A stretch of 32,000 nt of DNA from Nitrososphaera viennensis EN76 (GTDB lineage Archaea > Thermoproteota > Nitrososphaeria > Nitrososphaerales > Nitrososphaeraceae). Positions 8,537 to 24,497 of this stretch are shown here, piece after piece. Each line of letters starts with the position of its first letter. The stretch's first letter is position 1. The DNA lies in NCBI RefSeq assembly GCF_000698785.1, contig NZ_CP007536.1, positions 2,220,001-2,252,000 on the forward strand, in the 5' to 3' direction. The notes under the pieces are model-generated. The model had not been told where the DNA came from. It did not search any database and saw only the letters and a list, made by a program, of their open reading frames with translations. A program made the position numbers and the translations under genes.

Positions 8537-8689
8537 GAATAATCAAGAATATTTGTGTTTAAACAAGATAATGTAATTTAATTTGCAAAATAATAGGATT
8601 TAAGATAAATATTGTAATCTGTTTTTTCTAAAATCTATGGACGGGTTTTTTGCAATATACTTTTGTTGGCGTACAAGCCGAGTTTCAAA

Positions 8690-8869
8690 TCAACGCGTGA
8701 ATAATTTCTTTTCCAGTTTTGACATGAAAATGGGCCTGTAATTGTCAAAATCGTCGTACGCGCCACAATAGCCCGAAGCTTCTTCATCGGAATGGCATGT
8801 CGCAGACCTATCGTCGAAATGCTTGCAAATACGCGCGTATTTGCACATCCCTGGCTTCATAATGCGCAT
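8690..8869 (-). CDS. small 4-Cys protein, copy 1
   Basis: MRIMKPGMCKYARICKHFDDRSATCHSDEEASGYCGAYDDFDNYRPIFMSKLEKKLFTR is identical to copy 2. The sequence upstream of MRIM differs between copies, so the conserved start is probably at MRIM (8869) or MKPG (8860). Confidence 0.6.
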   Translation of the reverse strand: MRIMKPGMCKYARICKHFDDRSATCHSDEEASGYCGAYDDFDNYRPIFMSKLEKKLFTR

Positions 8870-8876
8870 TATGAAG
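8855..8876. promoter_or_regulatory. 22-bp perfect palindrome CTTCATAATGCGCATTATGAAG
   Basis: It is exactly self-complementary and lies at the inner edge of the left repeat. It contains ATG codons on both strands, so both divergent ORFs begin MRIMK. The copy at 15737-15758 has one mismatch (G to A). Confidence 0.6.
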
Positions 8877-9245
8877 ATGGTGTGCATCACCGGGGAAATA
8901 CCGACATCGTACGCGACAAGGGTCGAGCATTATTGCATTGACGCAAAACAAGACATAAAGGATTTTGTAGGAAACGCGGTCAAGGCCTACATCGACACCA
9001 TTGCTCCTGCAAAGTTTCCTACCGGCAATACTGCAGCGAGCGCGGTTATCGAACAGGAATCATCCAAAATTGCCAGTCTGCCCCCCGCCCCGGAGGACCA
9101 AAATAACCAAGATCAGGAGGTAGAAGCTGCAGCCCAAAAAGTCGCATGTGAGCATTGTGGTAAAAAGAATGTCTGGTCAAGGGGGACCAGAAGAGGTAAA
9201 CACAGATATCAGTGCAACGACTGCGGCAAGTATTTCAGTGTCTAG
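8862..9245 (+). CDS. hypothetical protein ending in a transposase-type zinc ribbon (possible chimeric or relic gene)
   Basis: The C-terminus CEHCGKKNVWSRGTRRGKHRYQCNDCGKYFSV resembles the N-terminal CxxC-x16-19-CxxC ribbon of archaeal IS-encoded transposases, but the ORF stops right after it. Start ATG at 8862, 8871 or 8877. Confidence 0.45.
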   Translation: MRIMKMVCITGEIPTSYATRVEHYCIDAKQDIKDFVGNAVKAYIDTIAPAKFPTGNTAASAVIEQESSKIASLPPAPEDQNNQDQEVEAAAQKVACEHCGKKNVWSRGTRRGKHRYQCNDCGKYFSV

Positions 9246-9329
9246 AGAATAATCTCTTGCTCGACCACTCATTGAAAAGGGGAAAGCAGGTTTGGGTTGA
9301 AGCCCGGTGCCTTTCACTTCATCCAAGCA

Positions 9330-10052
9330 TCAGCTGACAGCTATGACATACAGCTTGTTTTCCTGCACAGGAACGTGGGAATGTTCCTGAATACTCTTTA
9401 GCTCGACAGTTAGTCTTTGACCTATCAATTCCTCTGGGAGATCGCCAGGGATCGCTATTCTGACCTTTGTAGTCTTGATTTGTCTATCAGGCAGGGTTAT
9501 GGAGACATTATCCGGAAACGATGCCAACCTCTTAGTGTTATAGTAACACGTGGGGTCTTCGATTCCTTCAAACCGAAGTTTACTGTACCTCTGCAACAGC
9601 TCTGTGGAGGACAATGCCTGAGAAGCTTTTAGGGCGGCGGGATAGTCAGATGGCTCCAGCCTCATGACAACCTTCTCAGGGTTGAATTCTAATTCGCCTT
9701 CCTGCTGAGATGACGATGTTGGCGATATCCTTTGAAATTCAACCGATTTTTCTTGCTTATCCTTTACTCCTCCTTTTATGTACACCATTTTTATCGTGAC
9801 ATCTACTGACCAGCCTCTTTGACCAAGCGCCGTCAATATACATCGCCTACGGAAAGATTTGTCGATGAAATGCCTTTCAGACGGAGCTAGATATATTTCG
9901 GAAGATTTACCATATCCTCCAAATTCTCTGCCAAAGAATTCGGCTTCGTCCGTTCGAGACATCTCTTTAAGATAGGAAGAGACATCTCGTAAATAATAGC
10001 TTTGGTGGCGAATTTCATGTTTCTTTAAAGTACTCTCATTGCTTGCCCACAT
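9330..10052 (-). CDS. hypothetical protein (240 aa)
   Basis: A long ORF with an ATG start, 36 nt downstream of the BNR gene on the same strand, so probably co-transcribed. No motif recognised. Confidence 0.7.
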   Translation of the reverse strand: MWASNESTLKKHEIRHQSYYLRDVSSYLKEMSRTDEAEFFGREFGGYGKSSEIYLAPSERHFIDKSFRRRCILTALGQRGWSVDVTIKMVYIKGGVKDKQEKSVEFQRISPTSSSQQEGELEFNPEKVVMRLEPSDYPAALKASQALSSTELLQRYSKLRFEGIEDPTCYYNTKRLASFPDNVSITLPDRQIKTTKVRIAIPGDLPEELIGQRLTVELKSIQEHSHVPVQENKLYVIAVS

Positions 10053-10088
10053 GGTCGCTTGTAAAAGGTGGCCAAATGCCCAATTTTC

Positions 10089-13000
10089 TCACCTGACATT
10101 CTTGTCATATCCGACTGTCAAGACCAAATTCACCGTTGTCACCACTGTTGACGCTTCGACGCTACAGGGCGCTGAGACATTAGTGCAGTATGAATAAGTT
10201 ACAACAAATTGTATTGGCTCATCAGTTAGTCCGAAGAGATTTTCTGCAGGAACGTTATTGAATGTAAATATCTTGTCGAGATTTCCGCCAGAGGTTGCGT
10301 CGCCGCCTGTCCATTGAAATTCCTCGAAATAGGGCACCCCTACGCCATAGATGCTGATAGTCCCACCCAGAAAATAATGCGTCTGACCAAGGTACAGGAC
10401 AGTTTCCGGGTATCTCGTGAAGATGCTAGTATCGACGCACTTGATAGGTATCAATCTAGAGGCCATACAGCCATGAAGATCCCATCTGCCTTTGGTGTTG
10501 TTATTCACTGGATCAGGTGTTTCTAGGAAAAAAGTATAACCTTCCAATGGCTTCGGATTGATATGTCTGTCGCAGTGGAAGTCCTTACTGACATGGAAGT
10601 TACAGGTCATTGGGTTTGAAAGGCTGAATTGGCCATCCGAGCGCAGTGTATAGGGCGAGGAATTGCCTTCTCTCAAGAGGATTCCAGTCGACATAGTTGT
10701 TGCAATTTTGGCCGTAAGCTGATCAGGAGATTGGAAGATTGTTCCATATGTAGTGTTAGGTGTCTGCCAGCCAGTTGTTGCATTTCTCAAGGTTTCGTAC
10801 AGATTGCCGCCGCTGAGGGTGAAGATGTGCACGTTATCGTCTGGAGTTATCGAAATGGCAGGAATCGAATGATCGAGAGTACTGTCTGCGGTCTCTACTC
10901 CGGCGAATGTACCATTGCCGTAAAATTTGGCAACCTTTAACGTCCCATGGTTTCCGCTTGTCAGATAGGCAACGAAAGCCATCCTGCTTGAATTGGACGA
11001 GAAACCATCCATCGTATCTGACGCAATCTGCTTTGTGGTATTGCTTGACAAACAGGTAAAACATCCGCTCCAGAAATCACCCCAAGGATTGGTCCCGGTT
11101 CCGTTGTATACTTGCCATCCTAGATGATCCCAACCGTATGCTGTGTATACCTTCAACATTTTACCCGAGTCCAATCTTGTCAATGTTACCGGAATCTCGT
11201 TTGCGCCGGTCATTCCAGTGAATTGTGTTGGCGACGGGCTAGGTATCCAGCTCCACCCTCCATCCTTTGACCAGTAGTCCTGCATGTACCAGTTGCCACC
11301 CGTCTTGAAAGTGTACGTCACGAAAATAGTCCCGTTCGTACTCGATGCGGCAGCAGTTGTCGCACAGATTCCCCCTGGAAGACATGAATTGTCAGTCGTT
11401 TCAGTTCTTAATGCTCTCGTGCTAAAGAGGGAGAGCGATTTGTCATGAATCACGAATGTCTTTGCATAAAGCGTATTGTCAGAGTGATCCTCTTGGACAT
11501 AGACCAAAGTTATCCTCTCAGTAGAGTTGTAGTGCGTGTAGGCGATTGTCCACTTACGACTGTCAGAGCCAAGAATCCCCGTACCTGTCGATGTCGCGCT
11601 TGCAGACCAGGTGCGGCCTAGGTCTTTTGACGTTTTGTATACTATGTTAAATCCGCCATCATAAAATGCGAACTGGGTATGGTTGCTTGACTCTACCAGC
11701 CTTCTCTCACCTGCAAATGATTCGGACGAGAGTGGCGAATTGAAAATAAGGCTATCCTGCATGACCGTTCCAGGTTCAAGCAGCCCAAACACTACGTTGT
11801 AGGGCGAACCAGTGCTCTCCCGCCACATTCCTGCCAGCGCCCCATCCAAAACAATAGCTCCTGAAAGCTGGTCAAGTGATGTAAAAGTGGTTCCAAACGG
11901 ATTGAATGGAGCCTCCCATACTCCTGCGATTTTCCTTGTAACATACACCTTGCCGTTGGATATTGAAAGGATGTTTAGATCACCGTTCGGGTAGGAAAAG
12001 ATGGATGGTAGATTATGCCTGAGCGTACTATCCACGGTTTCAATTGTTGAAAATGTGCCATTTGCGAAGATTCTTGCAATCTTTACGATCCCTCCGGCAC
12101 TTGCCGTAACATTGGTGTATGTGACCACTCCCTGCCCGGTAGCGTCAACAGTGGAGGAAATCTGCTTGTAAGTGTTTGAAGCCATTCCGGTTCCCGTAAC
12201 CGTTTGAACAGTACCCCAAGAGGTACCGTTAAAAATCCTGTAATACAAATCCGCGCTGTCATACTTCAAGTACGCAAACAGCATCTTGGTAGAATCTAGC
12301 GGAGTTAGCGTCAGCGCAGGCCGATAGATGCTTACACCTGTGACTTCAGCCAATGAATCAGACCAGGTAGCTCCTCCATTGGTTGATTTTTTGATTCCGT
12401 ACGAGAAATATGTCGCCCCAGACGCTACCCACTTGAATGCAGCATAAATAGTTCCATTTCCATCGACGGCGGTTGCTACTCCCACGCAGGACCCTGATGC
12501 AGAAATGCAGCCGCTGTTAACTGTGGTGCTACCGATCTGTACCGGTGAGCCCCAGCTTATCGATGCGGATGGCCACGTTACATTGCCTCTTATAGAATAG
12601 AAGTTTGTATTGTTTCCAACAACATGCCAGTAAATCACGTTTATGCGCTCTCCACCGCTTTGGATGTGATGCACTACCGTCCATCTGTGCTTATCAGAAG
12701 CGACAGTGCCTGTTCCAAGCGAAAAAGCTGAACTCCAGGTATGCCCTCTGTCGTCCGATGTCCTGTAGACAATGTTTGAACTGTCATAGTAGAAGGCGTT
12801 TAGTCGAGTGTTGTTTGTAGTTACTATCCTTGTTTGGCCCTCAAAGTAGTTGCCGATTTCAGGAGAGATGAAGGTGTTGGTTCCGCCCACAACGTATGGA
12901 TCGATAAGGAATGGTTTTCCGCCGCCAGCACCTACAGGGATCGTTAGTAAAGATGTCTCGACGTCAAAATCAACTTGATACCCGGAGTCGATAGCATCAG

Positions 13001-13976
13001 ACCAGTCAAGTTCCAACCCTTCAGGCTCATATTCATTATTCCCCGAGACTATACCTTCCACGCCTTGTACGTCAAAGTCAATTTTGCTATCGGTCGTAGG
13101 TGAGGAATGAATTACCCGGAGTTTGTCGTCCTGGACAATAGAGTTATTGTCGCCATCATCTATTGCTAGCTTTATTGAGGTAGCATTTGCGCTTGTGCCC
13201 GCGATAAAGAACTCGTACCTATCTTCATAGCCTCTTGAATTTTGTGCAGGTCTCCAAAAGATGTCGTACTGCTTTTCTGCTCCAATGACTCTTTGGTCCA
13301 CAACGCTACTGTTCTGCCATAGCGAAAACGCGCCTTCAGACGATGGTATTGAGAGAAGATACCTGTAACCTCTGCTGTCTTGGACTTCAGTAGAGCCGTC
13401 AGTATTCCATGTTATGGTCATGGTCACTTCCGAGTCGGTCATCCCCTCAAACATCAGAGTCGGATAAGTAACAGACCTTGTTATGCTGCTGCCATTGGAT
13501 TGGACAAGCGGCTCGCCAGATATCTTCACCAAACTACTGCTAGAAGTCTCGGTTAGATTTGCCATTGGCAAGATAGTCTCTTCAGGTTCATTTTCAGTAG
13601 ATGTCGAATTGGTATCTGTCGAGGAAGTCGAATTGCCAGTTTCTTCACCGGAGGTCTGGGTCGTATTGCCAACATGGGTGCTGTCAGAAGTAGTAGCGTC
13701 ACTAGGCTCCTGGCTTGAAGAATCTGATATCGTATTATTATTTCCAACCTGCTCCCCAGTTTGGCTGCGAGTATCGGTGCTGTTTGAAGACGATGATGAG
13801 GACGAGGAAGAAGAGGCAGCAGATTCACCTGATGAAGTTGAATTCTGTGCGCTGGCGTTCATGGCGACATTAGAAACAAGGGATAGCAACAAAACAACAA
13901 TCAGAGCAAACGAAAGTGACAGTTTCAGGGCGGCCGTTGTGCGATCCGGTGTTCCTCCACTTCCTCCACGAGGCAT
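10089..13976 (-). CDS. large secreted or surface protein with Ser/Thr-rich stalk and two tandem BNR/Asp-box (sialidase-like beta-propeller) modules
   Basis: N-terminal hydrophobic signal/anchor (LSLSFALIVVLLLSLVSNVAMNASA) followed by a ~90-aa S/T/N-rich region that includes S10. Four Asp-boxes (SxDxGxTW) are present: SDDRGHTW (12735-12758), STNGGATW (12364-12387), SKDLGRTW (11607-11630) and SKDGGWSW (11247-11270). There are many N-x-S/T sequons. Confidence 0.9.
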   Translation of the reverse strand: MPRGGSGGTPDRTTAALKLSLSFALIVVLLLSLVSNVAMNASAQNSTSSGESAASSSSSSSSSSNSTDTRSQTGEQVGNNNTISDSSSQEPSDATTSDSTHVGNTTQTSGEETGNSTSSTDTNSTSTENEPEETILPMANLTETSSSSLVKISGEPLVQSNGSSITRSVTYPTLMFEGMTDSEVTMTITWNTDGSTEVQDSRGYRYLLSIPSSEGAFSLWQNSSVVDQRVIGAEKQYDIFWRPAQNSRGYEDRYEFFIAGTSANATSIKLAIDDGDNNSIVQDDKLRVIHSSPTTDSKIDFDVQGVEGIVSGNNEYEPEGLELDWSDAIDSGYQVDFDVETSLLTIPVGAGGGKPFLIDPYVVGGTNTFISPEIGNYFEGQTRIVTTNNTRLNAFYYDSSNIVYRTSDDRGHTWSSAFSLGTGTVASDKHRWTVVHHIQSGGERINVIYWHVVGNNTNFYSIRGNVTWPSASISWGSPVQIGSTTVNSGCISASGSCVGVATAVDGNGTIYAAFKWVASGATYFSYGIKKSTNGGATWSDSLAEVTGVSIYRPALTLTPLDSTKMLFAYLKYDSADLYYRIFNGTSWGTVQTVTGTGMASNTYKQISSTVDATGQGVVTYTNVTASAGGIVKIARIFANGTFSTIETVDSTLRHNLPSIFSYPNGDLNILSISNGKVYVTRKIAGVWEAPFNPFGTTFTSLDQLSGAIVLDGALAGMWRESTGSPYNVVFGLLEPGTVMQDSLIFNSPLSSESFAGERRLVESSNHTQFAFYDGGFNIVYKTSKDLGRTWSASATSTGTGILGSDSRKWTIAYTHYNSTERITLVYVQEDHSDNTLYAKTFVIHDKSLSLFSTRALRTETTDNSCLPGGICATTAAASSTNGTIFVTYTFKTGGNWYMQDYWSKDGGWSWIPSPSPTQFTGMTGANEIPVTLTRLDSGKMLKVYTAYGWDHLGWQVYNGTGTNPWGDFWSGCFTCLSSNTTKQIASDTMDGFSSNSSRMAFVAYLTSGNHGTLKVAKFYGNGTFAGVETADSTLDHSIPAISITPDDNVHIFTLSGGNLYETLRNATTGWQTPNTTYGTIFQSPDQLTAKIATTMSTGILLREGNSSPYTLRSDGQFSLSNPMTCNFHVSKDFHCDRHINPKPLEGYTFFLETPDPVNNNTKGRWDLHGCMASRLIPIKCVDTSIFTRYPETVLYLGQTHYFLGGTISIYGVGVPYFEEFQWTGGDATSGGNLDKIFTFNNVPAENLFGLTDEPIQFVVTYSYCTNVSAPCSVEASTVVTTVNLVLTVGYDKNVR

Positions 13977-14024
13977 ATGTCGCCTAGTAATGAAGCTTCT
14001 CTAATATTGTTAGCTAAGATTTTG

Positions 14025-14043
14025 TACGTACGCGAGGTACGTA
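14025..14043. promoter_or_regulatory. inverted repeat TACGTAC-GCGAG-GTACGTA between the wHTH gene and the BNR gene
   Basis: The 7-nt arms are perfect. It lies 49-67 nt upstream of the BNR ATG (13976), just beyond a TAATATT TATA-like box at 14003-14009, and 10 nt downstream of the wHTH stop. Confidence 0.3.
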
Positions 14044-14052
14044 TTATTTAAC

Positions 14053-14322
14053 TCACGCGCACAACCAGAACTGTAACTGGCTCACTTCGACAACTCTTCT
14101 TGCAAAGGTGGTGCCCCGTTCTGTAAGGATGACGTACCTTCTTTTTCCCTTAGTTCTAATTTTGACAAATCCTCTCTGCTCCAGACGCGCTAAAAGTACA
14201 TTGCATCTCTTGTGGTTTGTCCTTGACAGCATCGCTAGATTCGTCACTGTAATGCCATCATTTTCTATCAACACCTTCATGACTCTGGCAAGGTAGCCGA
14301 TGCGGGTCTCGGGTGAAGACAT
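14053..14322 (-). CDS. small winged-helix DNA-binding protein
   Basis: ITVTNLAMLSRTNHKRCNVLLARLEQRGFVKIRTKGKRRYVILTERG is an HTH plus wing pattern. ATG at 14322 lies ~26 nt downstream of ATTATATAAAG (14343-14353), consistent with a leaderless archaeal transcript. The track's TTG at 14343 lies inside that TATA box. Confidence 0.75.
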   Translation of the reverse strand: MSSPETRIGYLARVMKVLIENDGITVTNLAMLSRTNHKRCNVLLARLEQRGFVKIRTKGKRRYVILTERGTTFARRVVEVSQLQFWLCA

Positions 14323-14570
14323 GGCGTCCGAGCTGTGGAACAATTATATAAAGAATTCTCATATAGGAGAATGTAACACTTATTTTCTTATTTTGGAGGA
14401 CCATTTTCTGCAATTTTGGTGATTAATGAAAGCTCAAATTCGCTAATGTGTATTTCAGCATCTAAAATCAGGGGCTAGAAGGAATTGGAGTTGACAGACA
14501 GTGAACGGGCTGCAGAGTTTTACAAAATCCTCAAGAGGCAGGAATATCGAACGAAAAGACTGCGAGGGCA

Positions 14571-14816
14571 TTGACCCGCCTATTTCAGTACATGATTCAG
14601 GACAGGGCCATACCCCTGTCGAAGGAAGAGTTGGCGATTTGGAGAAGCCTTAACGTCATCGACCGGGAAGGGTATGTCCTAATGGACGACCGCTACGAGA
14701 TAAACAAGGGGGTATTGCTTTCAGAAGTCTATGAAGGCGGATTGTACAGGATCATCGGCGACGATGGAAGAATCCTATATGTGTCACCAACCAGAAAGAA
14801 AAAGCCGGATGATTGA
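14571..14816 (+). CDS. hypothetical protein (74-81 aa)
   Basis: The ORF has a TTG start at 14571 or an ATG at 14592 (MIQDRAIPLSKEEL...). No motif recognised. Confidence 0.4.
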   Translation: MTRLFQYMIQDRAIPLSKEELAIWRSLNVIDREGYVLMDDRYEINKGVLLSEVYEGGLYRIIGDDGRILYVSPTRKKKPDD

Positions 14817-14874
14817 TTTCCTAATGCTTGTTAAATCCTTGGCCGGTAGTCGTTGCCTCGTTTCCATAGTGGGC

Positions 14875-15530
14875 TTACGTCAATCCTATTCTCGAACTCT
14901 TTCTACGTTTGTGATAATAGTATGCCACGGACGCCCCTCCGCCTATGATTACCACTGCTGCTACAACTAAGGCCGTGGTAGTAGCGGAGAAGCCGTCAGG
15001 TTGCAAGACTCCTTCTACTAGGACGGTAGTAGCGCGTGCATCACATGCCTGGCATTGAGGCGAACTGGCGTCTATTGTGATGGCATTTCCTCCTAATTCT
15101 TGGATTACTGCAGAAGGTTGTATCTGAAAGGTGCCTTGCTTTAGGAAGCGTATGCCAAATTCATAGGGTATCGATTCGCCAGCCTTTAGATTAAAAGGAC
15201 CTTCCAAAGCCGTCCTCGAAACCACAATCCAGTCGTCACCTTCCAAACCGTAGATTTCAGAGACACTGACACGACCATATCCCTAGCGACCAGATTTGCG
15301 ACCGAACCTTTGAGTGTGACAATTCCACCAGCATCTATCGTTACTGCGGCTGGCTCTATATTCTGAAATTGAAGAATGGATGATATGCCGCCCCCTCCTT
15401 CTTCCTGGGCAAATGAATACTCGAATCCTGCTACTAGCATAGCGGCAAACAATGACACAACCAACGGGGCTTTGGTCAATCCAAATATCTCCCCGTATCT
15501 TGCAAAAAACCACGAAATACTCTTTTTCAT
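14875..15530 (-). pseudogene. frameshifted secreted or membrane-anchored surface protein
   Basis: Track ORFs 15186..15530 (signal-peptide-like MKKSISWFFARYGEIFGLTKAPLVVSLFAAMLVAGFEYSFA) and 14875..15246 (beta-rich domain plus C-terminal TM ALVVAAVVIIGGGASVAYYY and basic tail HKRRK) overlap in different frames. The downstream frame reads protein-like (GYGRVSVSEIYGLEGDDW) right up to a TAG at 15283-15285, so a 1-nt frameshift near 15275-15285 joins them. Confidence 0.65.
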
Positions 15531-15561
15531 ATAAATTCACTGTGCGAAATTGAAATAAAAA

Positions 15562-15762
15562 GAGTTTCAAATCAACGCGTGAATAATTTCTTTTCCAGTT
15601 TTGACATGAAAATGGGCCTGTAATTGTCAAAATCGTCGTACGCGCCACAATAGCCCGAAGCTTCTTCATCGGAATGGCATGTCGCAGACCTATCGTCGAA
15701 ATGCTTGCAAATACGCGCGTATTTGCACATCCCTGGCTTCATAATGCGCATTATAAAGCTGG
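15562..15762. repeat. right copy of ~201-bp direct repeat (partner at 8680..8880)
   Basis: See the left copy. The first ~193 nt are identical. Confidence 0.95.
15572..15751 (-). CDS. small 4-Cys protein, copy 2
   Basis: Identical to copy 1 from MRIMKPG onward. The track ORF extends to 15793 (MILTMSLLSAASF...) in copy-specific sequence. It lies downstream of the Hcp-like gene on the same strand. Confidence 0.6.
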   Translation of the reverse strand: MRIMKPGMCKYARICKHFDDRSATCHSDEEASGYCGAYDDFDNYRPIFMSKLEKKLFTR

Positions 15763-15907
15763 CAGCGGATAACAATGACATGGTCAAAATCATGCAGAAG
15801 CGTGGGAATTAATCCCATGTTGCACAGCATCATGAAAACCTGTGTCCGATAGATATAGAAGCAAGTTGTTATGGCATGGATGAATAAAATATAACAAAAA
15901 GGAGGGA

Positions 15908-15923
15908 AAAGGCCTAGGCCTTT
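15908..15923 (-). terminator. hairpin-plus-T-tract terminator-like element at the Hcp-like gene stop
   Basis: The 16-bp perfect palindrome AAAGGCCTAGGCCTTT embeds the TAG stop (15914-15916). On the minus strand it is followed 7 nt later by TTTTT (the reverse complement of 15881-15907 reads tccctcctttttgttatattttattca). Confidence 0.45.
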
Positions 15924-16552
15924 CTGTTCGCCTTTATGTCCCAGCCTCCTGTCACCGGCGCGCCAAGCGAGCCGTCAGGGTTGACAGGATAGTACGTGAA
16001 CTCTATCTTGGCAAAGTTGAGCGAGAAGCTGTCCGTGGGGACTGCTCCTGAACCGCCTCCTTGCTGGTACGACGAGACGAGCACGTCCGTCAGCTTGATC
16101 TGGAGGAACTGCTGGCCCTTTTTGCCGCTCACCTCGCCTGTGAGCACGACCTGCTTGATGTGCTCGCCTGTAGCCGTTGCAAGCATCAGCTTTGGAGACG
16201 ACTTGTCGATATTTTTGGTAAAACTGATGTCCTGGAACGACACCTTTCCCGCGCCTCCACCGCCGCCCGTGCTTGGCGAGCCTGTGTTGGATGCGCCCCA
16301 GCTGAACGATTCGACGTTTATCTCGCCTTTGTGCTTGTCATTTGTTGACTCTCCTTCAATGCCGTCTATCTTTAAAAAGTAGTCGACCGTGGCAGCATCG
16401 GCAGAAGGCATCCCGAGCAGCGCCTCGCTGGCCGGGAGCTTTTGCGATGAAAAAGAAGGTGCCACTGCGACGTACCCTGCAAGAATCGACGCAACAACTG
16501 CAACCGCTACCGCTACTACTGCTGTCATCTGCATCTTGCCTAGGTTTGGCAT
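15914..16552 (-). CDS. hcp: Hcp (type VI secretion tube protein) family homolog with N-terminal hydrophobic extension
   Basis: From residue ~56 the sequence reads DYFLKIDGIEGESTNDKHKGEINVESFSWG...GGGGGAGKVSFQDISFTKNIDKSSPKLMLATATGEHI...LTDVLVSSYQ...SLNFAKIEFTYYP...GWDIKAN. This is collinear with bacterial Hcp1 as I remember it. Residues 9-31 (MTAVVAVAVAVVASILAGYVAVA) look like a signal peptide or anchor. A TATA-like TAGATATA lies at 16572-16579. The internal Met48 (ATG at 16411) is an alternative start that would give a canonical Hcp N-terminus. Confidence 0.9.
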   Translation of the reverse strand: MPNLGKMQMTAVVAVAVAVVASILAGYVAVAPSFSSQKLPASEALLGMPSADAATVDYFLKIDGIEGESTNDKHKGEINVESFSWGASNTGSPSTGGGGGAGKVSFQDISFTKNIDKSSPKLMLATATGEHIKQVVLTGEVSGKKGQQFLQIKLTDVLVSSYQQGGGSGAVPTDSFSLNFAKIEFTYYPVNPDGSLGAPVTGGWDIKANRKA

Positions 16553-16642
16553 GGCGACGGATGCTGGAGAATAGATATACCTTTTCTGAAGCTCGGCTCT
16601 ATAAAATAGCTAAAAAGAAGGAGGGGAGTAGGGGAAGAAGCC

Positions 16643-18904
16643 CTACTTGGGCAGCTCTATCTTTTCTGCTGTTGCCGCGATCCTCGGGATGGACCCAAGG
16701 TCGACGCACGGCACCTGCTCCAGCGCGACCGCCGCGGTGTCGGACGCGCCATAGCCCGTTATGATGCCAAAGCCGTTAGTGTGCTTGGGGTACACCCTCA
16801 GCTCTATCGCAAACGAGCACTTTTGGTGCGCGCCGAGCATCTCCCCAAACGTCTTTTCGGCGGCCTTGGCGTTTGCCGCGTTGAGCGGGCTTGGGATCGG
16901 CGGAACCGTCGAGGGGGCGTTTGTCGTGCCGGTCTCTATCGTCCCGCTTGTGTCGTTGAGCCCGCGCACGAACCACAGGTTGTAGCTGTGCATGAACTTG
17001 TTGACGTGGAACGCATAGAACCGCACAGTGAACTTGTCGCCGGAGCACCCTGTCAAAAAGAGGCAGCTTCCCTCCACAGGCGCGTCGTTCTTGCGCAGCG
17101 CGACAATGTCCCCGTAGCAGGCGACGTTGTCTGCGTGGAAAATATGGACAAGGGCGGCATAGTTTACCGCGTCGGTGGCAGTCTCTGTCGACCAGCGCCT
17201 GAAAGTGAACGGCTTGTCGATCCCTGCTCCCATTGCGCCTGCGGGCTTGATCCTGTTTCCTGCCGCATCAAACACCTCGACTATCACAAGGTGCTTGCCA
17301 TTGTCGTGCAGGGTCGTGTTCCACGACTGGTGGAACTGGAACCAGAGCCACCCGCCGTCCGGCGCGTCGGACTCGTACGGGATGAGGTACAGCCCAGAGT
17401 TACTGCCGACCGCGTTTGGCCCGAGCGCTACTGCCTCCGTCTGCAATTGCGTCCCGACCCACTTCCACCGGCTCCATGCTACAGGATCTGTCAGCACCTG
17501 CGGCACGCCGTCAGGGTCGCCGGAAGAGTTTGCCTTTACCACGCTTACCCTGTAGTATTTCGCGCCTGTGCCCTTCATGCCTTCGTGGAACTTGAGCCTG
17601 AAGCTGAGCGTCTGGCCCCACGGCTGGCCTGTGTAGTTGTTGTTGACAAGGCCGTCGCCGGGGTTTGCCGTCAAGACGCCAAGCTCGCTGTCCTGCACGG
17701 GGCTGACAAGCTTCCAGCTGGGGATGTAGCCGATGTTTTCCAGCATCACAAAGTTCGTGCCCGGGTCGGGGACGTCGCTTCCCGGGTTGCAGGCGCGCCC
17801 CTTCCATGTGCGCAGGTGCGCGTCGTCGGACGCAGTAAAGTAGTCGTTCGTGGTTGAGCCGTCATAGATGTACACCCACTGGTTGTCCTGCCACTGCCTG
17901 ACCTTGTAATAGTAGGTTACCCTGCATCCTGCTCTTACAAACGGCCGCCAGTAGCAAAAGCTGAACTCGCCGTCCTCGTTCACGGGCGTCTCGCCGACCT
18001 TTCTCGTGCTGCATGTGCAAAAGATCGGGTAGAGGTAATAGTGCGCGTCAATGTACGCAAGCCTGTCCTGTTGCGGAAGCGACATCAGCATGTGGTAGTC
18101 TTCTGCCAGCTTTTCAGGCGGGTTGCCTAGCGGTACTTTGGCGCCTGTTGCGCGCAAGAGGCTGGCGGCCTTTTCCACCTGCCTGATTGGCACGGGATCA
18201 GGGCCGGGCCCCGGCCAAGGACCTATGGGCCCGGGATCAGGGTCCGGGATTGGAGGGACGCGCTTTATCAAATCTTTGAGCCTGTCAAGTATGTCGTCGA
18301 TGTCAAAGGGCGGGCGCAGCCTGCAGCAGCATGTCTTTTCATATACTTCGACAACGGCGTTGCATATTGGCGCGCATATGGTAGGCAGCGTCAACGACGG
18401 CGCGATTGCTTTTGATATTTCTGGCCTGAGCGTCAGGGTGTCCGTAAACGTCGTCGACTTTGCAAGAATCTTTGTCGCTGTCTTTGCAACGGCAATGTCT
18501 CCAAGCAGCCATGGCCTTGGCCTGCACCTGTGTACGTCGCCGTGCACACAAACTATGGGCAGAATCCAGTCGCGCCATTTGGGCGTGATAGAGATCACGC
18601 CCGTTCTGGACCACTCGGCGACCTTCTCCCTTGGCCTGAAGGTGACAAGCATTTCCCTTGTCACTTCTTTTTCGTCAATGTCCGGGCCAAAGCCGTAGCC
18701 GCTTCCCTCCTTGATGTTGCGGGCTAGCTCTGAAAGCTGGACCTTGTTTCCCTGGATGGGCCCGACTTTTCTGATAACGCCCTTCTCTACTGCAAAAAGG
18801 GCTACGCGTGGTGCCTGGTCTTTCTCGGTGATTCCGAGGAACCTTAGTTCTAGAATTTTGTCGTTATTGCTGTTGTTGGTAGCAGGTATCCTTGAGGCTG
18901 CCAT
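16643..18904 (-). CDS. large Cys- and Pro-rich hypothetical protein (753 aa)
   Basis: A long GC-rich ORF. ATG at 18904 (MAASRIPATNN...) is preceded by an AT-rich region with TTTATTAAAG at 18924-18933. The track's TTG at 18994 lies in that AT-rich DNA. It contains a CCC triplet, a PPIPDPDPGPIGPWPGPGPDPVPI linker and a beta-rich C-terminal half. No family recognised. Confidence 0.85.
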   Translation of the reverse strand: MAASRIPATNNSNNDKILELRFLGITEKDQAPRVALFAVEKGVIRKVGPIQGNKVQLSELARNIKEGSGYGFGPDIDEKEVTREMLVTFRPREKVAEWSRTGVISITPKWRDWILPIVCVHGDVHRCRPRPWLLGDIAVAKTATKILAKSTTFTDTLTLRPEISKAIAPSLTLPTICAPICNAVVEVYEKTCCCRLRPPFDIDDILDRLKDLIKRVPPIPDPDPGPIGPWPGPGPDPVPIRQVEKAASLLRATGAKVPLGNPPEKLAEDYHMLMSLPQQDRLAYIDAHYYLYPIFCTCSTRKVGETPVNEDGEFSFCYWRPFVRAGCRVTYYYKVRQWQDNQWVYIYDGSTTNDYFTASDDAHLRTWKGRACNPGSDVPDPGTNFVMLENIGYIPSWKLVSPVQDSELGVLTANPGDGLVNNNYTGQPWGQTLSFRLKFHEGMKGTGAKYYRVSVVKANSSGDPDGVPQVLTDPVAWSRWKWVGTQLQTEAVALGPNAVGSNSGLYLIPYESDAPDGGWLWFQFHQSWNTTLHDNGKHLVIVEVFDAAGNRIKPAGAMGAGIDKPFTFRRWSTETATDAVNYAALVHIFHADNVACYGDIVALRKNDAPVEGSCLFLTGCSGDKFTVRFYAFHVNKFMHSYNLWFVRGLNDTSGTIETGTTNAPSTVPPIPSPLNAANAKAAEKTFGEMLGAHQKCSFAIELRVYPKHTNGFGIITGYGASDTAAVALEQVPCVDLGSIPRIAATAEKIELPK

Positions 18905-19161
18905 GTCCTCTTGGAAGATCCCCTTTATTAAAGAATAGTAGATGTAGTCTCTAGTAAATAGTATCTTGCTATGCAAGTACCCGAGATAAGACAATCATGA
19001 CCATAGATCACTTTTAAGTTCTGTAGAATCCTTGGATGTTAGAATCGAGTGTTGACTTTCTGGTGGTTCCTAATTGCGTGAGTAATGTCCCCTCTAGTGG
19101 ACATTTTGACATAGAGTTTGCCTCCATTAGATATAATAGTAACAATCTTCTACTCTCGGGC

Positions 19162-19671
19162 ATGCTAGATGGTAAAGACGACACTTTACAAGTAGCAAAC
19201 CATCGTACCAAGGGCCTGGTTATAGGAGCATTGACGATCGCATTGCTTCTTGCAATACCTGCCCACGCCGCGATTCAGCAGGCTGATGCCATCAGTGTTT
19301 CCTCCGACACCACTCTGCCTTCTGGAGGATCAGACTACTGTACATCGAGTACGTCCGACCAAACGATACTTTCCGTGACTGTGGCAAACAGTAACGTCAA
19401 GCTTGATGTCGCAACGCTGGCAGGATACGTCGCGACCCAAGGCGGTAACAATTATGGAAACTTGGAATTAAAACTTAAGACCGCCGGAGTTCAGGTGGAC
19501 TGGGCGAACATTGAAGCACAGAGTTCCGACCTGAGAGACAGAACAGCTGCATTATCATGGTCTGTAACCACCTCGAGTGCTCAAACAGTAACAGCTCGCA
19601 ATGGCGACATAGGTAGTTCAGACACAGTCTGTGTAATCACAGGTACGGCTGAACTTTTCGTGACATACTAG
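19162..19671 (+). CDS. secreted hypothetical protein
   Basis: ATG at 19162 lies ~28 nt downstream of ATATAATA (19131-19138). The signal peptide is HRTKGLVIGALTIALLLAIPAHAA, and the mature part is S/T-rich and beta-like. The track start at 19036 is less likely. Confidence 0.7.
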   Translation: MLDGKDDTLQVANHRTKGLVIGALTIALLLAIPAHAAIQQADAISVSSDTTLPSGGSDYCTSSTSDQTILSVTVANSNVKLDVATLAGYVATQGGNNYGNLELKLKTAGVQVDWANIEAQSSDLRDRTAALSWSVTTSSAQTVTARNGDIGSSDTVCVITGTAELFVTY

Positions 19672-19685
19672 GGGATGATGGAAAA

Positions 19686-20369
19686 ATGAAAGAGAATATC
19701 GAGAAATTCAAAGGTAAGAAAGCATACGCAATAACAGCAGTGGTAGGAATCGCGGTGATCGCAAGCATCCTAATCCTTGCAACAACGAGTATCCCAATCT
19801 CGCAAGTGAATGCCGTACCACCGGCCCCGGACACTGTTCAGACCAATACCGTCGAAGCTCAATTATCACCATCAGAGCTAACGGGTAGAATGACTCTCTA
19901 CATACTTCCACTGGAGTACGGCCAGAATTATCAATCGGGTAGAATAGTTAACATCGTCAACAGTCTAATACCGAACATGGCGGCATCTCACTACACAGAC
20001 CTAGGATTTTCGCTGCGAGGACAATACGCTGATGAGCCAGTCGTGTTGACCGAACAGAACATTCCAGAAGACCTGCGGCAGAATTTCAAGCCTGGTGATG
20101 CTGTTAAAATGACTGTAATAAAGCACCCTGCCGATACCGTGAAAGTGTACGTCGACCCAGATGTCAGGAAGCCAGACGGCACACCTGTAACCGTTGACGA
20201 CATCAGCCCAGATTGGCAATTCGGGAACGGTATTACATGCTGTGGATTTTCACTGAAGGATGGCACAGATGTAAGTGCGGTGTTCTTTGTGGTCGATCAG
20301 GCTTATGATGCACAAGTCATGAAACAACTCGATGCAATCAAAACTACAGCCGCAAGTATGACATACTAA
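19686..20369 (+). CDS. membrane-anchored or secreted hypothetical protein
   Basis: N-terminal basic region plus TM (KKAYAITAVVGIAVIASILILATT). It starts 14 nt after the preceding gene, so it is probably co-transcribed. Confidence 0.75.
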   Translation: MKENIEKFKGKKAYAITAVVGIAVIASILILATTSIPISQVNAVPPAPDTVQTNTVEAQLSPSELTGRMTLYILPLEYGQNYQSGRIVNIVNSLIPNMAASHYTDLGFSLRGQYADEPVVLTEQNIPEDLRQNFKPGDAVKMTVIKHPADTVKVYVDPDVRKPDGTPVTVDDISPDWQFGNGITCCGFSLKDGTDVSAVFFVVDQAYDAQVMKQLDAIKTTAASMTY

Positions 20370-20372
20370 GCC

Positions 20373-20400
20373 CGGGTCAAAACGACCCGCTTCATTTTTT
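20373..20400 (+). terminator. stem-loop plus T6 terminator-like element
   Basis: CGGGTC-AAAAC-GACCCG (a 6-bp stem, 20373-20389) is followed by TTCATTTTTT. It lies immediately after the stop at 20369, between convergent genes. Confidence 0.55.
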
Positions 20401-20718
20401 ATTAAATTTCATTAAACCTTGCGCCTTTACCGCCTTTTCAAGCATCTCTTTCCGTCCTTTAACATCTAGGCCAGCGACCTCTCCCGGCGTCTTTCCATCG
20501 AGTGCCATGTGCGGCTTTACGAAATTGTTGTACTGTATTCTTTGCCCTTCTTCCAACGGTGTCTTGTACGACTTCCAACGCCTTGAGAGAGTCGCCACGA
20601 ATCTGGTCAGGGATCTGACCATTAGCATTCTTGATCGCTTCTTGAAATACTCTGACAGACGTTCCAATGTCGCGTTTTTGGAAATGCGCAAGTATACAAC
20701 GGCTGCTTCACTATTCAA
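20392..20718 (-). pseudogene. C-terminal fragment of a DDE (rve/IS-type) transposase
   Basis: NATLERLSEYFKKRSR...IQYNNFVKPHMALDGKTPGEVAGL matches the '..ER.n...k.R' region plus the 'YN..RPH.aL.GkTP.e' tail typical of DDE transposase C-termini. The catalytic D, D part is missing, and the frame is closed by a TAG immediately upstream of 20718. Confidence 0.55.
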
Positions 20719-22231: not shown

Positions 22232-23109
22232 ATGGCTCTTGAAGAGTATGAATATGCCCTGCAGCAGGCGCGCCTTGCACACGGTGAAGTGAAAAAGTGG
22301 ATAATCTATGCAGGCGAGCAGCTGGAAATAGCCGGCGTCCAGAAGGAGAAAATATCCACAAAATTGCGAAATGACCTGCCGGGCGTCTCGGCCGATTACA
22401 TAAGCCAGATCTGTAGCCAGATGGGGTGGACGGACAGGCGTTTTCCCCCGGGGTTGAGAAAACTAAGCCTGAAAATAGTTCCACTCCTTCTGCTTCTTCA
22501 GAGCAGCCGCAACAAGTCCACAATGATGATAATAACAAGGCAGCAGCGGAGGAGGAGCCTGACAAGGCAAGGTGCAGCAAGGAAAACCAGCCCTATATCG
22601 ACCACCTGCAGAGAAAGATCGAGTTTCTGCAGGACGTGCAAAAGAAGCTCCGCGACAGGCCATTTCTGTCCCTGCTTGAGAAAAAGCAGTACGACGAGTA
22701 CATCATGCTTGCAGACAGGGCGGAAAAGCTTGCGCGGGAGGCCTGGGATGCAAGGCAGACCATACCTGTTGCCACGCAGTTTTACCTTGCGCAGATAGTG
22801 GCGACCTGTACAATCAAGCACGGCGCAAGCGAGTACGTTTCAAAGGTCAAGGACCTTTTTGGGCTGACGAGCAAGCAGGTCACCAAGACGCTCAAGGGAG
22901 TAGTCCGCGACGTGCACTGCCTCTACGAGCCGACAAACAGGGCAGAGGCCCTGATGGACGGCTTTTACGGCAGGCCATGCGAAAAGTGCGGCAACTGGCG
23001 GGTGAAATGGGAAAACGGCATGTGCCATTGCTTCCACTGCGACAGCGACTACCGCGCAAAAGCCGAGAGGCTGCCGCTGGCAAGGGAACAGGGCGAGTGG
23101 TCCAACTAG
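22232..23109 (+). CDS. TerS-like DNA-binding protein (N-terminal HTH, C-terminal 4-Cys ribbon), readable only with a -1 frameshift at 22447-22453
   Basis: The upstream frame reads MALEEYEY...KISTKLRNDLPGVSADYISQICSQMGWTDRRFPPG (HTH-like). The protein-like sequence then continues in the -1 frame (GVEKTKPENSS...CEKCGNWRVKWENGMCHCFHCDSDY) to the TAG at 23107-23109. Its position directly upstream of TerL suggests a small terminase. Track ORFs 22217..22798 and 22426..23109. Confidence 0.6.
22447..22453 (+). promoter_or_regulatory. X_XXY_YYZ slippery heptamer C_CCG_GGG within a T4C5G4 run
   Basis: In the upstream frame the codons are cgt ttt ccC CCG GGG. Tandem -1 slippage (CCG to CCC, GGG to GGG) lands exactly in the downstream frame (next codon gtt = V of GVEKTK). 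Confidence 0.4.
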
Positions 23110-23118
23110 CTCTTTTGG
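23107..23118 (+). promoter_or_regulatory. degenerate copy of provirus gene-boundary motif (TAGCTCTTTTGG)
   Basis: It embeds the TerS-like stop codon and lies 20 nt before the TerL ATG at 23127. It lacks the TT of the consensus. Confidence 0.35.
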
Positions 23119-23126
23119 TTTGCAAA

Positions 23127-24497
23127 ATGCCATCAAAATCTGAGGTACAGGATGATAATTCTAAAATACAGGCCCTGAAGGGCAAGCCATTCTGGATCTG
23201 GAGCAAGAAAAAGCATGCAAAAAAATCCAAAGACTGCTGTTGCTTTAACCACATTGTCGGCCTGCCCGTCAAAAACGGCAGGGCCATGCCTATGTTTGAC
23301 TATGAGAAAAAGATCCACGACCTGCTTGCAAAAAAGGGAAGAAAAGAGAAACAGAAGGACAAGCACCTGTGGGTGAAAAAAGCCACAGGGCTTGGGGTGA
23401 CTGAACTCCTGCTGAGGTACATGGCCTGGCTGTGCTACCGTGACGATTCGTGCAGGGGCGCGCAGATGTGCATCGTCACCGGCCCGAACAAGGAGCTTGC
23501 CAAGGGGCTCATAACCCGGCTAAAGGAGATCTGCAAGGACGTTGAAAAGCTGGAGTCAAAAGAGACGGTGGTCGTCCTGAACGGCTGCAGGATAGAGGCT
23601 TTTCCGTCGCACCACCTCGACGCGATGCGCGCCCTTGCCAGGCCGGCGTTCATACTCCTTGACGAGGCCGACTTTTTCCCGCCAAAAGAGCAGAAAAACG
23701 CCCGCGACGTCGCAGAGCGCTACATAGCCAAGAGCGACCCGTACATAGTATTGGTGAGCACGCCCAACATGCCCGGCGGCCTGTACGAGAGCATAGAAAA
23801 GGAGGCAGAAGCGCAGTGCATCTACCACAGGCTCCACCTTGATTACAAGGCCGGGCTGAACAAGATCTACACAAGAGCCGAGATTGAAAAGGCGCGCAAG
23901 TCGCCAAGCTTTGAAAGAGAGTATAACTTGAAGTACGGCTACGGCACAGGCAACATTTTTCCCTACCAGCTTGTGGACGCCTGCGTCATGGAATATGACC
24001 CTGCGCTGCAAAAGGGCGCATCGGACAGGGTGCTTGCCGTGGACCCTGCCTACGGTTCCAGCAAGTTTGCCTTGGTAGGCATTGAGCGGCTGGACGAAAT
24101 GCTGTACGTCAAGGAGGCAAGGCAGTACGAGCGCCCGTCTCCTGCCGCCATGCTCGAGGTGGTTGCCGAGTTTGCCCGCCAGTACCCGACTGTGCTCGTA
24201 GACTCGGCGCATCCGGGGCTAATCAGGGACTTGCAGGAAAAAGGGGTGGACGCACAGCCGGTAAACTTTGCAAAAAATCTTGCCGACATGACAAGTGCGG
24301 CGGCGCGGGTCGTAACGGAAAAGAAGGTAAGGATACACCCTGCCTTTACGGATCTGCAGTACCAGCTAAAGGCGGCAGTGTACAATGATAAAGGCCACCC
24401 GGACAAGCGCAAACTGTCGTTTGACCTTGGCGATTGTATGTTGATGCTTGCCTATTATTGCCTCCGCCAAGATGGATTATTCATGGCCGAGATCTGA
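23127..24497 (+). CDS. terL: terminase large subunit
   Basis: Walker-A-like KKATGLGVTE, Walker B AFILLDEADFF, coupling motif LVSTPN, and nuclease-domain acidic motifs VLAVDPAYGSSKFALVG and VLVDSAHPG. ATG at 23127; the track ORF start at 22977 is an off-frame overlap with the upstream gene. Confidence 0.9.
   Translation: MPSKSEVQDDNSKIQALKGKPFWIWSKKKHAKKSKDCCCFNHIVGLPVKNGRAMPMFDYEKKIHDLLAKKGRKEKQKDKHLWVKKATGLGVTELLLRYMAWLCYRDDSCRGAQMCIVTGPNKELAKGLITRLKEICKDVEKLESKETVVVLNGCRIEAFPSHHLDAMRALARPAFILLDEADFFPPKEQKNARDVAERYIAKSDPYIVLVSTPNMPGGLYESIEKEAEAQCIYHRLHLDYKAGLNKIYTRAEIEKARKSPSFEREYNLKYGYGTGNIFPYQLVDACVMEYDPALQKGASDRVLAVDPAYGSSKFALVGIERLDEMLYVKEARQYERPSPAAMLEVVAEFARQYPTVLVDSAHPGLIRDLQEKGVDAQPVNFAKNLADMTSAAARVVTEKKVRIHPAFTDLQYQLKAAVYNDKGHPDKRKLSFDLGDCMLMLAYYCLRQDGLFMAEI

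Follow-up and report, generated by a model that had tools for sequence, protein, structure and literature searches.

A leader-bearing Hcp homologue of Nitrososphaera viennensis: probable export of a type VI secretion tube protein without a contractile machine

The stretch of DNA analyzed here, hereafter the window, comprises 32,000 nucleotides of Nitrososphaera viennensis EN76 (contig NZ_CP007536.1, positions 2,220,001 to 2,252,000) and contains the gene NVIE_026580 (UniProt A0A060HV73), which encodes a homologue of Hcp, the tube protein in type VI secretion systems (T6SS). Hcp and the contractile T6SS are generally viewed as inseparable, and Hcp has no signal peptide since the sheath fires it out. 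In N. viennensis, the Hcp core is preceded by a conserved 55-residue extension with a hydrophobic core, and no T6SS marker was found in the window. We consider it probable (roughly 0.7) that NVIE_026580 is targeted to Sec and forms an extracytoplasmic Hcp ring independent of any contractile machine.

The 212-aa open reading frame (ORF) was located at 15914..16552 on the minus strand, exactly where the first-pass annotation of the window had placed it. A protein that is 100% identical, P0001 of N. viennensis, is named ‘Hcp family type VI secretion system effector’, and NVIE_026580 already carries the annotation ‘hcp1-like’; thus, the homology itself is already part of the existing records. The locus tag and accession were taken from the supplements of PMC7785015 and PMC10030591.

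An Hcp core behind a conserved leader

The T6SS_HCP profile of Pfam (PF05638) matched residues 59–187 over its whole length (profile positions 1–129 of 129) with E=8.5e-41 and a score of 139.7 bits, where the cutoff is 23.5, and TIGR03344 scored 60.0 bits, narrowly over its cutoff of 58.9. The Hcp homology that the first-pass annotation had proposed is thus borne out by both profiles. Using phmmer against the PDB, Pseudomonas aeruginosa Hcp1 (1y12) was matched over residues 52–211 (E=5e-39), and the Foldseek identity to 1y12 was 43–46%, within the 40–50% given in the first-pass annotation. A model was built with AlphaFold2 (AF2) from a 50-sequence alignment. In this model, the predicted local distance difference test score (pLDDT) was at least 90 for 105 residues, nearly all within the core at residues 56–212, and below 50 at residues 3–40, 45–51 and a Gly-rich loop at 94–99. 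The means of 10-residue blocks were 75–97 across residues 51–212, except for the block 91–100 containing the Gly-rich loop (48). The best Foldseek matches in the PDB were all Hcp chains or Hcp1 fusions (E ~1e-17), with template-modelling scores of 0.86–0.95 relative to stand-alone Hcp target chains. Moreover, the core was 62–66% identical to T6SS-linked Hcps of soil bacteria, retained the Gly-rich loop along with almost every conserved core position, and showed a ratio of nonsynonymous to synonymous substitution rates (dN/dS) of 0.13–0.25 in archaeal comparisons (Nei–Gojobori). By sequence and fold, NVIE_026580 is a member of the Hcp/TssD family. No second Hcp copy was found in the window. In the solved fusions of TrwK, GspE and Vps4 with Hcp1, the Hcp1 part lies at the C-terminal end of the chain behind a bulky partner; thus, an N-terminal appendage is compatible with the Hcp fold.

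The features of the gene and its borders are as follows (all on the minus strand).
15914..16552, minus strand: complete coding sequence of the leader-bearing Hcp homologue, 212 aa
15917..16387, minus strand: Hcp/TssD beta-barrel core, residues 56–212, including the Gly-rich loop 94–99 (Pfam, AF2, Foldseek, dN/dS)
16391..16402, minus strand: conserved A-[DEN]-A-A junction abutting the core, residues 51–54 (orthologue alignments)
16403..16444, minus strand: variable linker, residues 37–50, with the non-conserved Met48 (ATG at 16411) (alignments; pLDDT <50)
16445..16456, minus strand: candidate signal-peptidase I site, residues 33–36 (S-F-S-S), S-F-[AS] in orthologues (by inspection)
16460..16534, minus strand: h-region or possible transmembrane segment, residues 7–31 (orthologue alignments, Kyte–Doolittle, dN/dS)
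16535..16552, minus strand: leader n-region, residues 1–6 (MPNLGK), MP[NK]L[GDN][KMR] in orthologues, conserved at the nucleotide level as ATGCCAAAnCTAGG
16575..16588, minus strand: element CAGAAAAGGTATAT resembling a B recognition element (BRE) and TATA box, its TATAT beginning 27 nt upstream of the ATG
16598..16604, minus strand: second conserved AT-rich box TTATAGA, an alternative TATA box ~50 nt upstream of Met1
15890..15924, minus strand: hairpin over the stop codon followed by a T-rich tract, the likely transcript end (from sequence)

By inspection, the extension may be divided like a tripartite Sec-type signal, with MPNLGK as the candidate n-region, residues 7–31 (MQMTAVVAVAVAVVASILAGYVAVA) as the h-region and P-S-F-S-S as the candidate c-region. 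The core was preceded by an upstream extension in 11/11 archaeal loci. A hydrophobic segment was visible in 10 of them, with Kyte–Doolittle 12-residue maxima of 2.1–2.8, and the N-terminus of the remaining one (L006) is cut off at the contig end. Proteins labelled Nitrososphaera have more in common than hydrophobicity alone, namely, the motif M-P-x-L-G-K-x-Q-[ILV]-A-S-I-A...A-G-Y-V-x-V-A-S-F-[AS], a variable linker and A-[DEN]-A-A-x-VDYFLK, and the start of the h-region was conserved as Q-[ILV]-A-[SA]-I-A in orthologues. Small residues occupied positions −3 and −1 directly after the h-region across the orthologue alignment (S-F-[AS]), which resembles SFA/Q in a neighbouring secreted ORF (...YSFA/QEE; the slash marks the putative cut). 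An AVAVAV insertion in the h-region is specific to N. viennensis, where 25 residues compare with ~17–18 hydrophobic residues in orthologues. The A-D-A-A junction in front of the core may have been left over from a short signal peptide in an ancestor, or it may be a second site of processing. Dozens of proteins of ~200–210 aa covered ~100% of the query.

Met48 is replaced by Ile or Val in the closest orthologues, and the extension of the orthologue from N. sp. FF02 has no Met besides its start. No ATG, GTG or TTG was found within six codons of the core in the 11 archaeal loci, except for a GTG at the first core Val in two of them, whereas nearly all related bacterial genes start directly with M-A-x-VDYFLK. 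The dN/dS of residues 1–31 was 0.18–0.55 in six comparisons and 0.75 against the locus L004 (Nei–Gojobori, dS 0.4 to >1), which places the extension under purifying selection and supports translation from Met1. Upstream of Met1, CAGAAA(R)GGTATAT was kept at a fixed position in the nine archaeal loci compared, and its (G/A)TATAT core lay at the same distance in 8/9 despite near-saturated synonymous sites. The shared motif, the lack of a nearby start, the variable Met48, the low dN/dS and the conserved promoter position together indicate that the leader is translated. Accordingly, the long start, the promoter placed for Met1 and the Sec-type signal or anchor of the first-pass annotation all find support in these alignments, and the hydrophobic stretch at residues 7–31, the Met48 ATG at 16411 and the box TATATCTA at 16572–16579 were found where it had located them. 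The first codons were also conserved at the nucleotide level among the archaeal loci. With the conserved upstream boxes and the hairpin and T-tract, the gene looks like its own transcription unit, which appears to start at or just upstream of Met1, possibly giving a leaderless mRNA.

NVIE_026580 is transcribed. In a copper-limitation RNA-seq experiment (PMC7785015 Dataset S1), its level was ~7.8 and 8.2 (log2 of reads per kilobase per million) in the two conditions, which differed by a log2 fold change of 0.64 (padj 2e-13). The protein was not found in the supplements of the carbon-limitation proteome or the glycoproteome. No N-x-S/T sequon occurs in its sequence, and N-glycosylation is uninformative as a proxy for export.

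In the case of T6SS genes, six markers (ImpA, TssC/VipB, ImpE, TssF, TssG and ClpV, the queries being verified by Pfam in a Novosphingobium locus) were searched by tblastn against the window and 86 loci (11 archaeal and 75 bacterial, with up to ±10 kb of flank). None of the six was detected in the 32 kb of the window, nor did any of them turn up within 10 kb at the archaeal loci (0/11), whereas T6SS genes lay within 10 kb of the Hcp gene in 62 of the 75 related bacterial loci, nearly all of them leaderless. Among leaderless relatives whose context could be used, the closest one (P0087, 64% identical) is part of a canonical T6SS cluster, VasE-DotU-IcmF-ImpA-VipA-VipB-Hcp-ImpE. The window neighbours also gave no match to T6SS, contractile injection system or defence genes in Pfam, PHROGs, PADLOC or the PDB, in agreement with the lack of T6SS neighbours described earlier. 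T6SS neighbours were likewise absent at the leader-bearing bacterial loci L018 (Saccharibacteria) and L086 (Patescibacteria), both with Sec-like leaders, and L076 (actinomycete), with a leader (SRRDVLK) resembling those of twin-arginine translocation (Tat). NVIE_026580 therefore lacks two defining features of a T6SS component, since it is neither leaderless nor locally associated with a T6SS, and a protein with a Sec leader would not readily be loaded into a sheath in the cytoplasm. With respect to a tail tube of a phage or an extracellular contractile injection system, Pfam, PHROG and PADLOC searches of the window neighbours revealed no adjacent sheath, baseplate or spike genes, and no close relative of NVIE_026580 was found in 2.9 million viral contigs. 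Its sole PHROG match was phrog_27303 (function not assigned, E=1.3e-31), which indicates that genes resembling Hcp occur in some phage genomes.

T6SS-linked cores share two conserved cysteines (58/62 and 53/62), whose positions are taken by Thr126 and Gly139 in N. viennensis. Archaeal cores contained 0.40 cysteines on average, compared with 2.08 for the T6SS-linked ones. As exported proteins avoid unpaired cysteines, the lower number fits an extracytoplasmic location.

Leader-bearing Hcps among bacteria

An exhaustive HMMER search of 1.84 billion representatives yielded 13,507 relatives. Among 64 single-domain representatives at 50% identity, 42 had hydrophobic leaders, 4 had Tat-like leaders, 1 had another extension and 17 were leaderless, although these counts are biased by a query that is itself leader-bearing and by the collapse of T6SS Hcps into few clusters. 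In bacterial relatives with short leaders, the leader is a textbook signal peptide; its A-x-A site, the equivalent of the archaeal junction, comes straight after the h-region and borders the core, e.g., NAFA/ASVDYFLK in P0196, PAHA/ATSDFYLK in P0211 and SVSA/ADDYFLK in P0242. Cleavage at this site would yield the N-terminus of a canonical Hcp after Met removal. In P0177, P0219, P0221 and P0231, a hydrophobic N-terminus is followed by collagen-like G-x-y repeats and then by the Hcp core, with Pfam Collagen confirmed for P0219. Twin-arginine leaders of the SRRDVLK type precede the Hcp core in P0229, P0247, P0265 and L076:5941-6732; such a leader would imply the export of an already folded Hcp.

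The top-scoring relatives (among P0121-P0170) were proteins of 800–2200 aa with six Hcp-matching stretches, such as P0121, P0123, P0125, P0126, P0127 and P0140. Exactly six T6SS_HCP domains were assigned by Pfam in 4/4 giants scanned, and 3/4 also had Big_13 or PKD domains (P0126, P0127 and P0140). From their domain content, these giants look like covalent ‘hexamers’, with the whole ring in one chain. To our knowledge, single-chain hexa-Hcp proteins have not been described. Several of them start with RRxLxxExLExRxLLA, which we take to be the N-terminal motif typical of secreted Planctomycetes proteins. P0127 also contains a putative HExxH-like motif, HELGHTLALAH.

The first-pass annotation had presented a Sec-exported or tethered Hcp ring as a possible new use of the fold in archaea. 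Leader-bearing Hcps, however, are not specific to archaea and are common among the closest bacterial relatives. The class of leader-bearing, T6SS-independent Hcps is broad and apparently undescribed. Full-text searches of one literature library found no paper on archaeal, Nitrososphaera or Sec-exported Hcp; ‘hcp’ matches did occur in papers on ammonia-oxidising archaea, where the name may denote the unrelated hybrid-cluster protein.

A separate pattern was observed for the T6SS-less Hcp genes L039, L040, L056, L073 and L076, whose hosts are Actinomycetes, Gaiellaceae and Chloroflexi metagenome-assembled genomes (MAGs). These five genes are paired with a conserved methyltransferase of ~495 aa with the architecture DUF7059-MTS-DUF7782 (L040:10480-11976(-), L056:10468-11955(-)). 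The Hcps of L039, L040, L056 and L073 are leaderless, and that of L076 has a Tat-like leader. L073 encodes, in tandem, an additional 362-aa protein with an N-terminal Hcp domain.

Export without a contractile machine and its alternatives

In the reading preferred here, a precursor would be made from Met1 with its N-terminal Sec-type leader, which would send it across the cytoplasmic membrane. The Hcp domain would then fold outside the cell and probably assemble into a hexameric ring like other Hcps; this assembly is predicted because of the 62–66% identity to T6SS Hcps, the chains with six Hcp domains and the Hcp1 fusion structures. The ring would be either released after signal-peptidase cleavage near S-F-S (residues 33–35) or tethered by the hydrophobic segment via a linker of ~20 residues, and it would operate without sheath, baseplate, spike or ClpV. 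We infer the export, the cleaved or anchored state and the ring formation from sequence features. An uncleaved anchor is about as likely as a cleaved signal peptide because the 25-residue h-region is long and the AVAVAV insert is more typical of an anchor.

Several points weigh against this reading. The h-region is long for a cleaved signal peptide, and the sole protein-level record is one peptide with a score of 1.8 and zero intensity in one proteomic supplement table (PMC10030591), which is not convincing. The absence of T6SS genes is local, as the search covered 32 kb of the 2.5-Mb genome and flanks of up to 10 kb at the archaeal loci. Leader-bearing representatives at 50% identity had fewer cysteines than leaderless ones (0.64 vs 1.18, one-sided Mann–Whitney p=0.007), but the sequences are phylogenetically non-independent and the p-value overstates their independence. 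The Nitrososphaera core clade appeared in 18/100 bootstrap replicates of a neighbour-joining (NJ) tree, and the deep phylogeny is unresolved; owing to this low support, the donor, direction and number of transfers are not established. The role is also a guess, namely, a ring scaffold that is extracellular or associated with the envelope, or a module that binds small proteins.

The history of the gene bears on whether it is functional at all. The order DUF72-(753-aa protein)-Hcp-Zn-finger-PhoU_div-PHO4 was kept in N. evergladensis, N. sp. FF02 and several MAGs, and a distant lineage whose Hcp is 54% identical retained Hcp-ZnF-PhoU-PHO4. The Hcp ORF was intact in all archaeal loci (52–88% identity). 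The GC content at third codon positions (GC3) was 0.67 for the Hcp gene and 0.71 for its core, against 0.71–0.77 for native neighbours and 0.44–0.49 for two insertions specific to N. viennensis. Given the conserved synteny and native GC3, the gene is an old resident and not a recent import. The closest leaderless relatives belong to soil Acidobacteriota, Planctomycetota and similar groups. Most likely, the gene came from the bacterial T6SS-type Hcp family through an ancient acquisition and has since been passed on vertically at a fixed site. The plain NJ tree had a look suggestive of a donor and of monophyly, but it was not used for either because of the very low bootstrap support. The bacterial gene family and its closest leaderless relatives might suggest that the gene is a leftover, decaying or without function, of horizontal transfer from a soil bacterium with a T6SS. 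This is hardly credible against the intact ORFs, the low core dN/dS, the native codon composition, the conserved syntenic position and promoter, and the transcription.

In a further alternative, a canonical leaderless Hcp made from an internal start (Met48 or nearby), with the hydrophobic stretch untranslated, would be an orphan tube subunit of a T6SS or another contractile system at some other site of the genome. Bacteria commonly have orphan hcp genes outside their T6SS clusters, the core is close to T6SS-linked Hcps, and the marker search covered the window and flanks of up to 10 kb. Nevertheless, this alternative is very unlikely, since Met48 varies, the FF02 extension offers no other Met, start codons near the core are confined to the first-core-Val GTG of two loci, and the extension keeps its frame, motif and hydrophobicity with a dN/dS mostly of 0.18–0.55 and almost saturated synonymous sites. 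In addition, upstream of Met1 the promoter box has been conserved, neither of the T6SS-conserved cysteines is present, and we know of no T6SS in archaea. If the long product is accepted, its leader could instead be a class III (type IV pilin-like) signal, cut by a prepilin peptidase before the h-segment, which would bring Hcp into or onto a pilus-like fibre. Pfam Pilin_N (PF07790) matched residues 5–29 weakly (E=0.084), the orthologues share a Gln directly in front of the hydrophobic segment (Q-[ILV]-A-S-I-A), and N. viennensis has type IV pilus and archaellum genes. However, the Pilin_N match reached 14.2 bits against a cutoff of 25.2, no orthologue has a [KR]-[GAS] dipeptide before the h-stretch (the residue before the Gln is K/T/M/V/F/Y/L), related bacterial forms have ordinary Sec or Tat leaders, and no pilus genes lie nearby in the examined loci, which together make a pilin-like signal highly improbable. 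Somewhat less remote, yet still improbable, is a membrane anchor in the opposite orientation (N-out, C-in), with a membrane-docked ring inside the cell. Such a topology would suit the weak charge bias (K6 on the N-terminal side vs K38 on the C-terminal side) and the long h-region of N. viennensis. On the other hand, the cysteine depletion fits an oxidising external location, and relatives with classical cleavable or Tat signals would place Hcp outside. Related architectures also join Hcp with collagen, PKD and Big_13 domains, which are typically extracellular.

Beyond the export of a single archaeal protein, leader-bearing Hcps might form a large, so far unrecognised family of extracellular rings that descends from the T6SS tube subunit and has spread to T6SS-less organisms, the archaeal ring being an envelope component or a decoy or sponge for T6SS effectors; we regard this extension as unlikely. 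The T6SS-less hosts could include Nitrososphaera, bacteria of the candidate phyla radiation and, judging by their Tat leaders, actinomycetes. As a decoy, the exported ring would keep the hold of its lumen on small proteins and trap Hcp-dependent effectors from T6SS-armed soil bacteria. If true, such a decoy would give archaea their first described countermeasure against the T6SS and also their first functional part derived from it.

Taken together, the archaeal case and its many bacterial relatives that bear Sec or Tat leaders, collagen stalks or six covalently linked Hcp domains indicate a second life of the Hcp ring as an ordinary exported protein. Moreover, metagenomic ‘hcp’ counts, which are routinely taken as T6SS potential, may include exported forms. 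This raises the questions of what task a free or tethered Hcp ring has on the surface of a soil nitrifier and whether it interacts with bacterial T6SS attack. As N. viennensis is cultivable, localisation and N-terminal mapping are feasible.

Neighbouring genes and comparison with known Hcp systems

The other features of the window are listed below.
16643-18904, minus strand: gene for a 753-aa protein upstream of the Hcp gene, with Cys-rich and Pro-rich segments
22977-24497, plus strand: terminase large subunit (phrog_2, phrog_38)
25293-26705, plus strand: portal-sized ORF without a PHROG match
27793-29523, plus strand: 576-aa ORF with a C-terminal match to major head proteins

A partnership of Hcp with the upstream 753-aa gene was considered and rejected. 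The two genes are adjacent in 5 archaeal loci, but the 753-aa gene is a remnant in L007 and absent from L009 and L004 while Hcp is intact, and neither Hcp nor T6SS genes neighbour its homologues in bacteria. The 753-aa protein had no match in Pfam, the PDB, PHROG or PADLOC. Its family is rare and uncharacterised, with 45 proteins among 5.8 billion clusters. Its members come from Nitrososphaera and, sporadically, from Nitrospirae, Calditrichaeota, Sphingomonas and Thiodiazotropha, and the gene stands alone in every case. A link to the downstream 1295-aa secreted protein was also discarded because that protein lies in a 6.9-kb low-GC3 insertion missing from orthologous loci; it had no Pfam or PDB relative.

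This insertion is bracketed by a 201-nt direct repeat, 99% identical, at 8680-8880 and 15562-15762 (spacing 6882). The block at 8680-15561 has a GC3 of 0.44–0.49, is absent from the Hcp-ZnF intergenic region of other Nitrososphaera, and contains a 240-aa ORF, the 1295-aa secreted protein and a pair of small membrane-protein ORFs. It looks like an integrated element or an insertion with a duplicated target. At 14875-15530 on the minus strand, a 114-aa ORF with a signal-like N-terminus (...YSFA/QEE) overlaps a 123-aa ORF with a transmembrane end and a KRRK tail; from their sequences, the two appear to be halves of a single surface-protein gene that a frameshift has divided. A second low-GC3 block at 19036-20718, between the 753-aa gene and DUF72, holds two plus-strand ORFs of 211 and 227 aa with signal- or anchor-like N-termini and a 108-aa ORF (20392-20718) that resembles a C-terminal fragment of a transposase or integrase. 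The genes of this block gave no tblastn match in the orthologous loci.

Further downstream, a head-tail provirus module, which is presumably the known N. viennensis provirus, extends from 22977 to ~30000 on the plus strand. Within it, an ORF at 26617-27309 matched PHROGs without assigned function only, and its GYRGYHLNV...EIQIRT resembles RelA/SpoT-type nucleotidyltransferases, a putative assignment. A link between Hcp and the provirus at 23–30 kb was rejected because Hcp occupies the same site in orthologous loci without a terminase or capsid gene annotated within 10 kb, and because no relatives of the Hcp were found in viral contigs. A defence-system assignment was dropped as well, since no window gene matched PADLOC.

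Compared with the Hcp/TssD of T6SSs (P. aeruginosa Hcp1, PA0085, 1Y12), NVIE_026580 belongs to the same Pfam family over the full domain and has the same fold. In contrast, it carries a conserved 55-residue leader and linker where T6SS-linked Hcps start with M-A-x-VDYFLK, and it lacks both the two conserved cysteines and nearby sheath, baseplate, membrane-complex and ClpV genes. Its host is an archaeon with a single membrane and an S-layer, and the protein would exit by Sec instead of sheath contraction. The bacterial leader-bearing Hcps (L018, L086/P0070, L076, P0229, P0265 and metagenomic proteins) are closer to it, since they have the same architecture of leader, optional linker, A-x-A-A and core, cysteine-poor cores and, where context is available, no T6SS neighbours. 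However, the archaeal leader has its own motif, MPxLGKxQ[ILV]ASIA, and a long linker, whereas many bacterial ones have a short classical signal peptide with A-x-A abutting the core or a twin-arginine motif.

Specialised or ‘evolved’ Hcp effectors carry C-terminal toxin extensions and are delivered by the T6SS; such proteins, with HCP1 fused N-terminally to toxins, have been noted (PMC3482391). Like NVIE_026580, they combine an Hcp domain with an added region that alters its use. Unlike a toxin payload, the extension of NVIE_026580 is N-terminal, short and hydrophobic, i.e., a targeting sequence. The nearest structural parallels are the engineered fusions GspE-Hcp1 (4KSR/4KSS), Vps4-Hcp1 (6AP1) and TrwK-Hcp1 (7O42), in which Hcp1 is intact despite the N-terminal material and which were reportedly designed so that the Hcp1 ring enforces a hexamer. 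The partners in these fusions are artificial, cytoplasmic and soluble, whereas NVIE_026580 carries a natural leader predicted to target the membrane.

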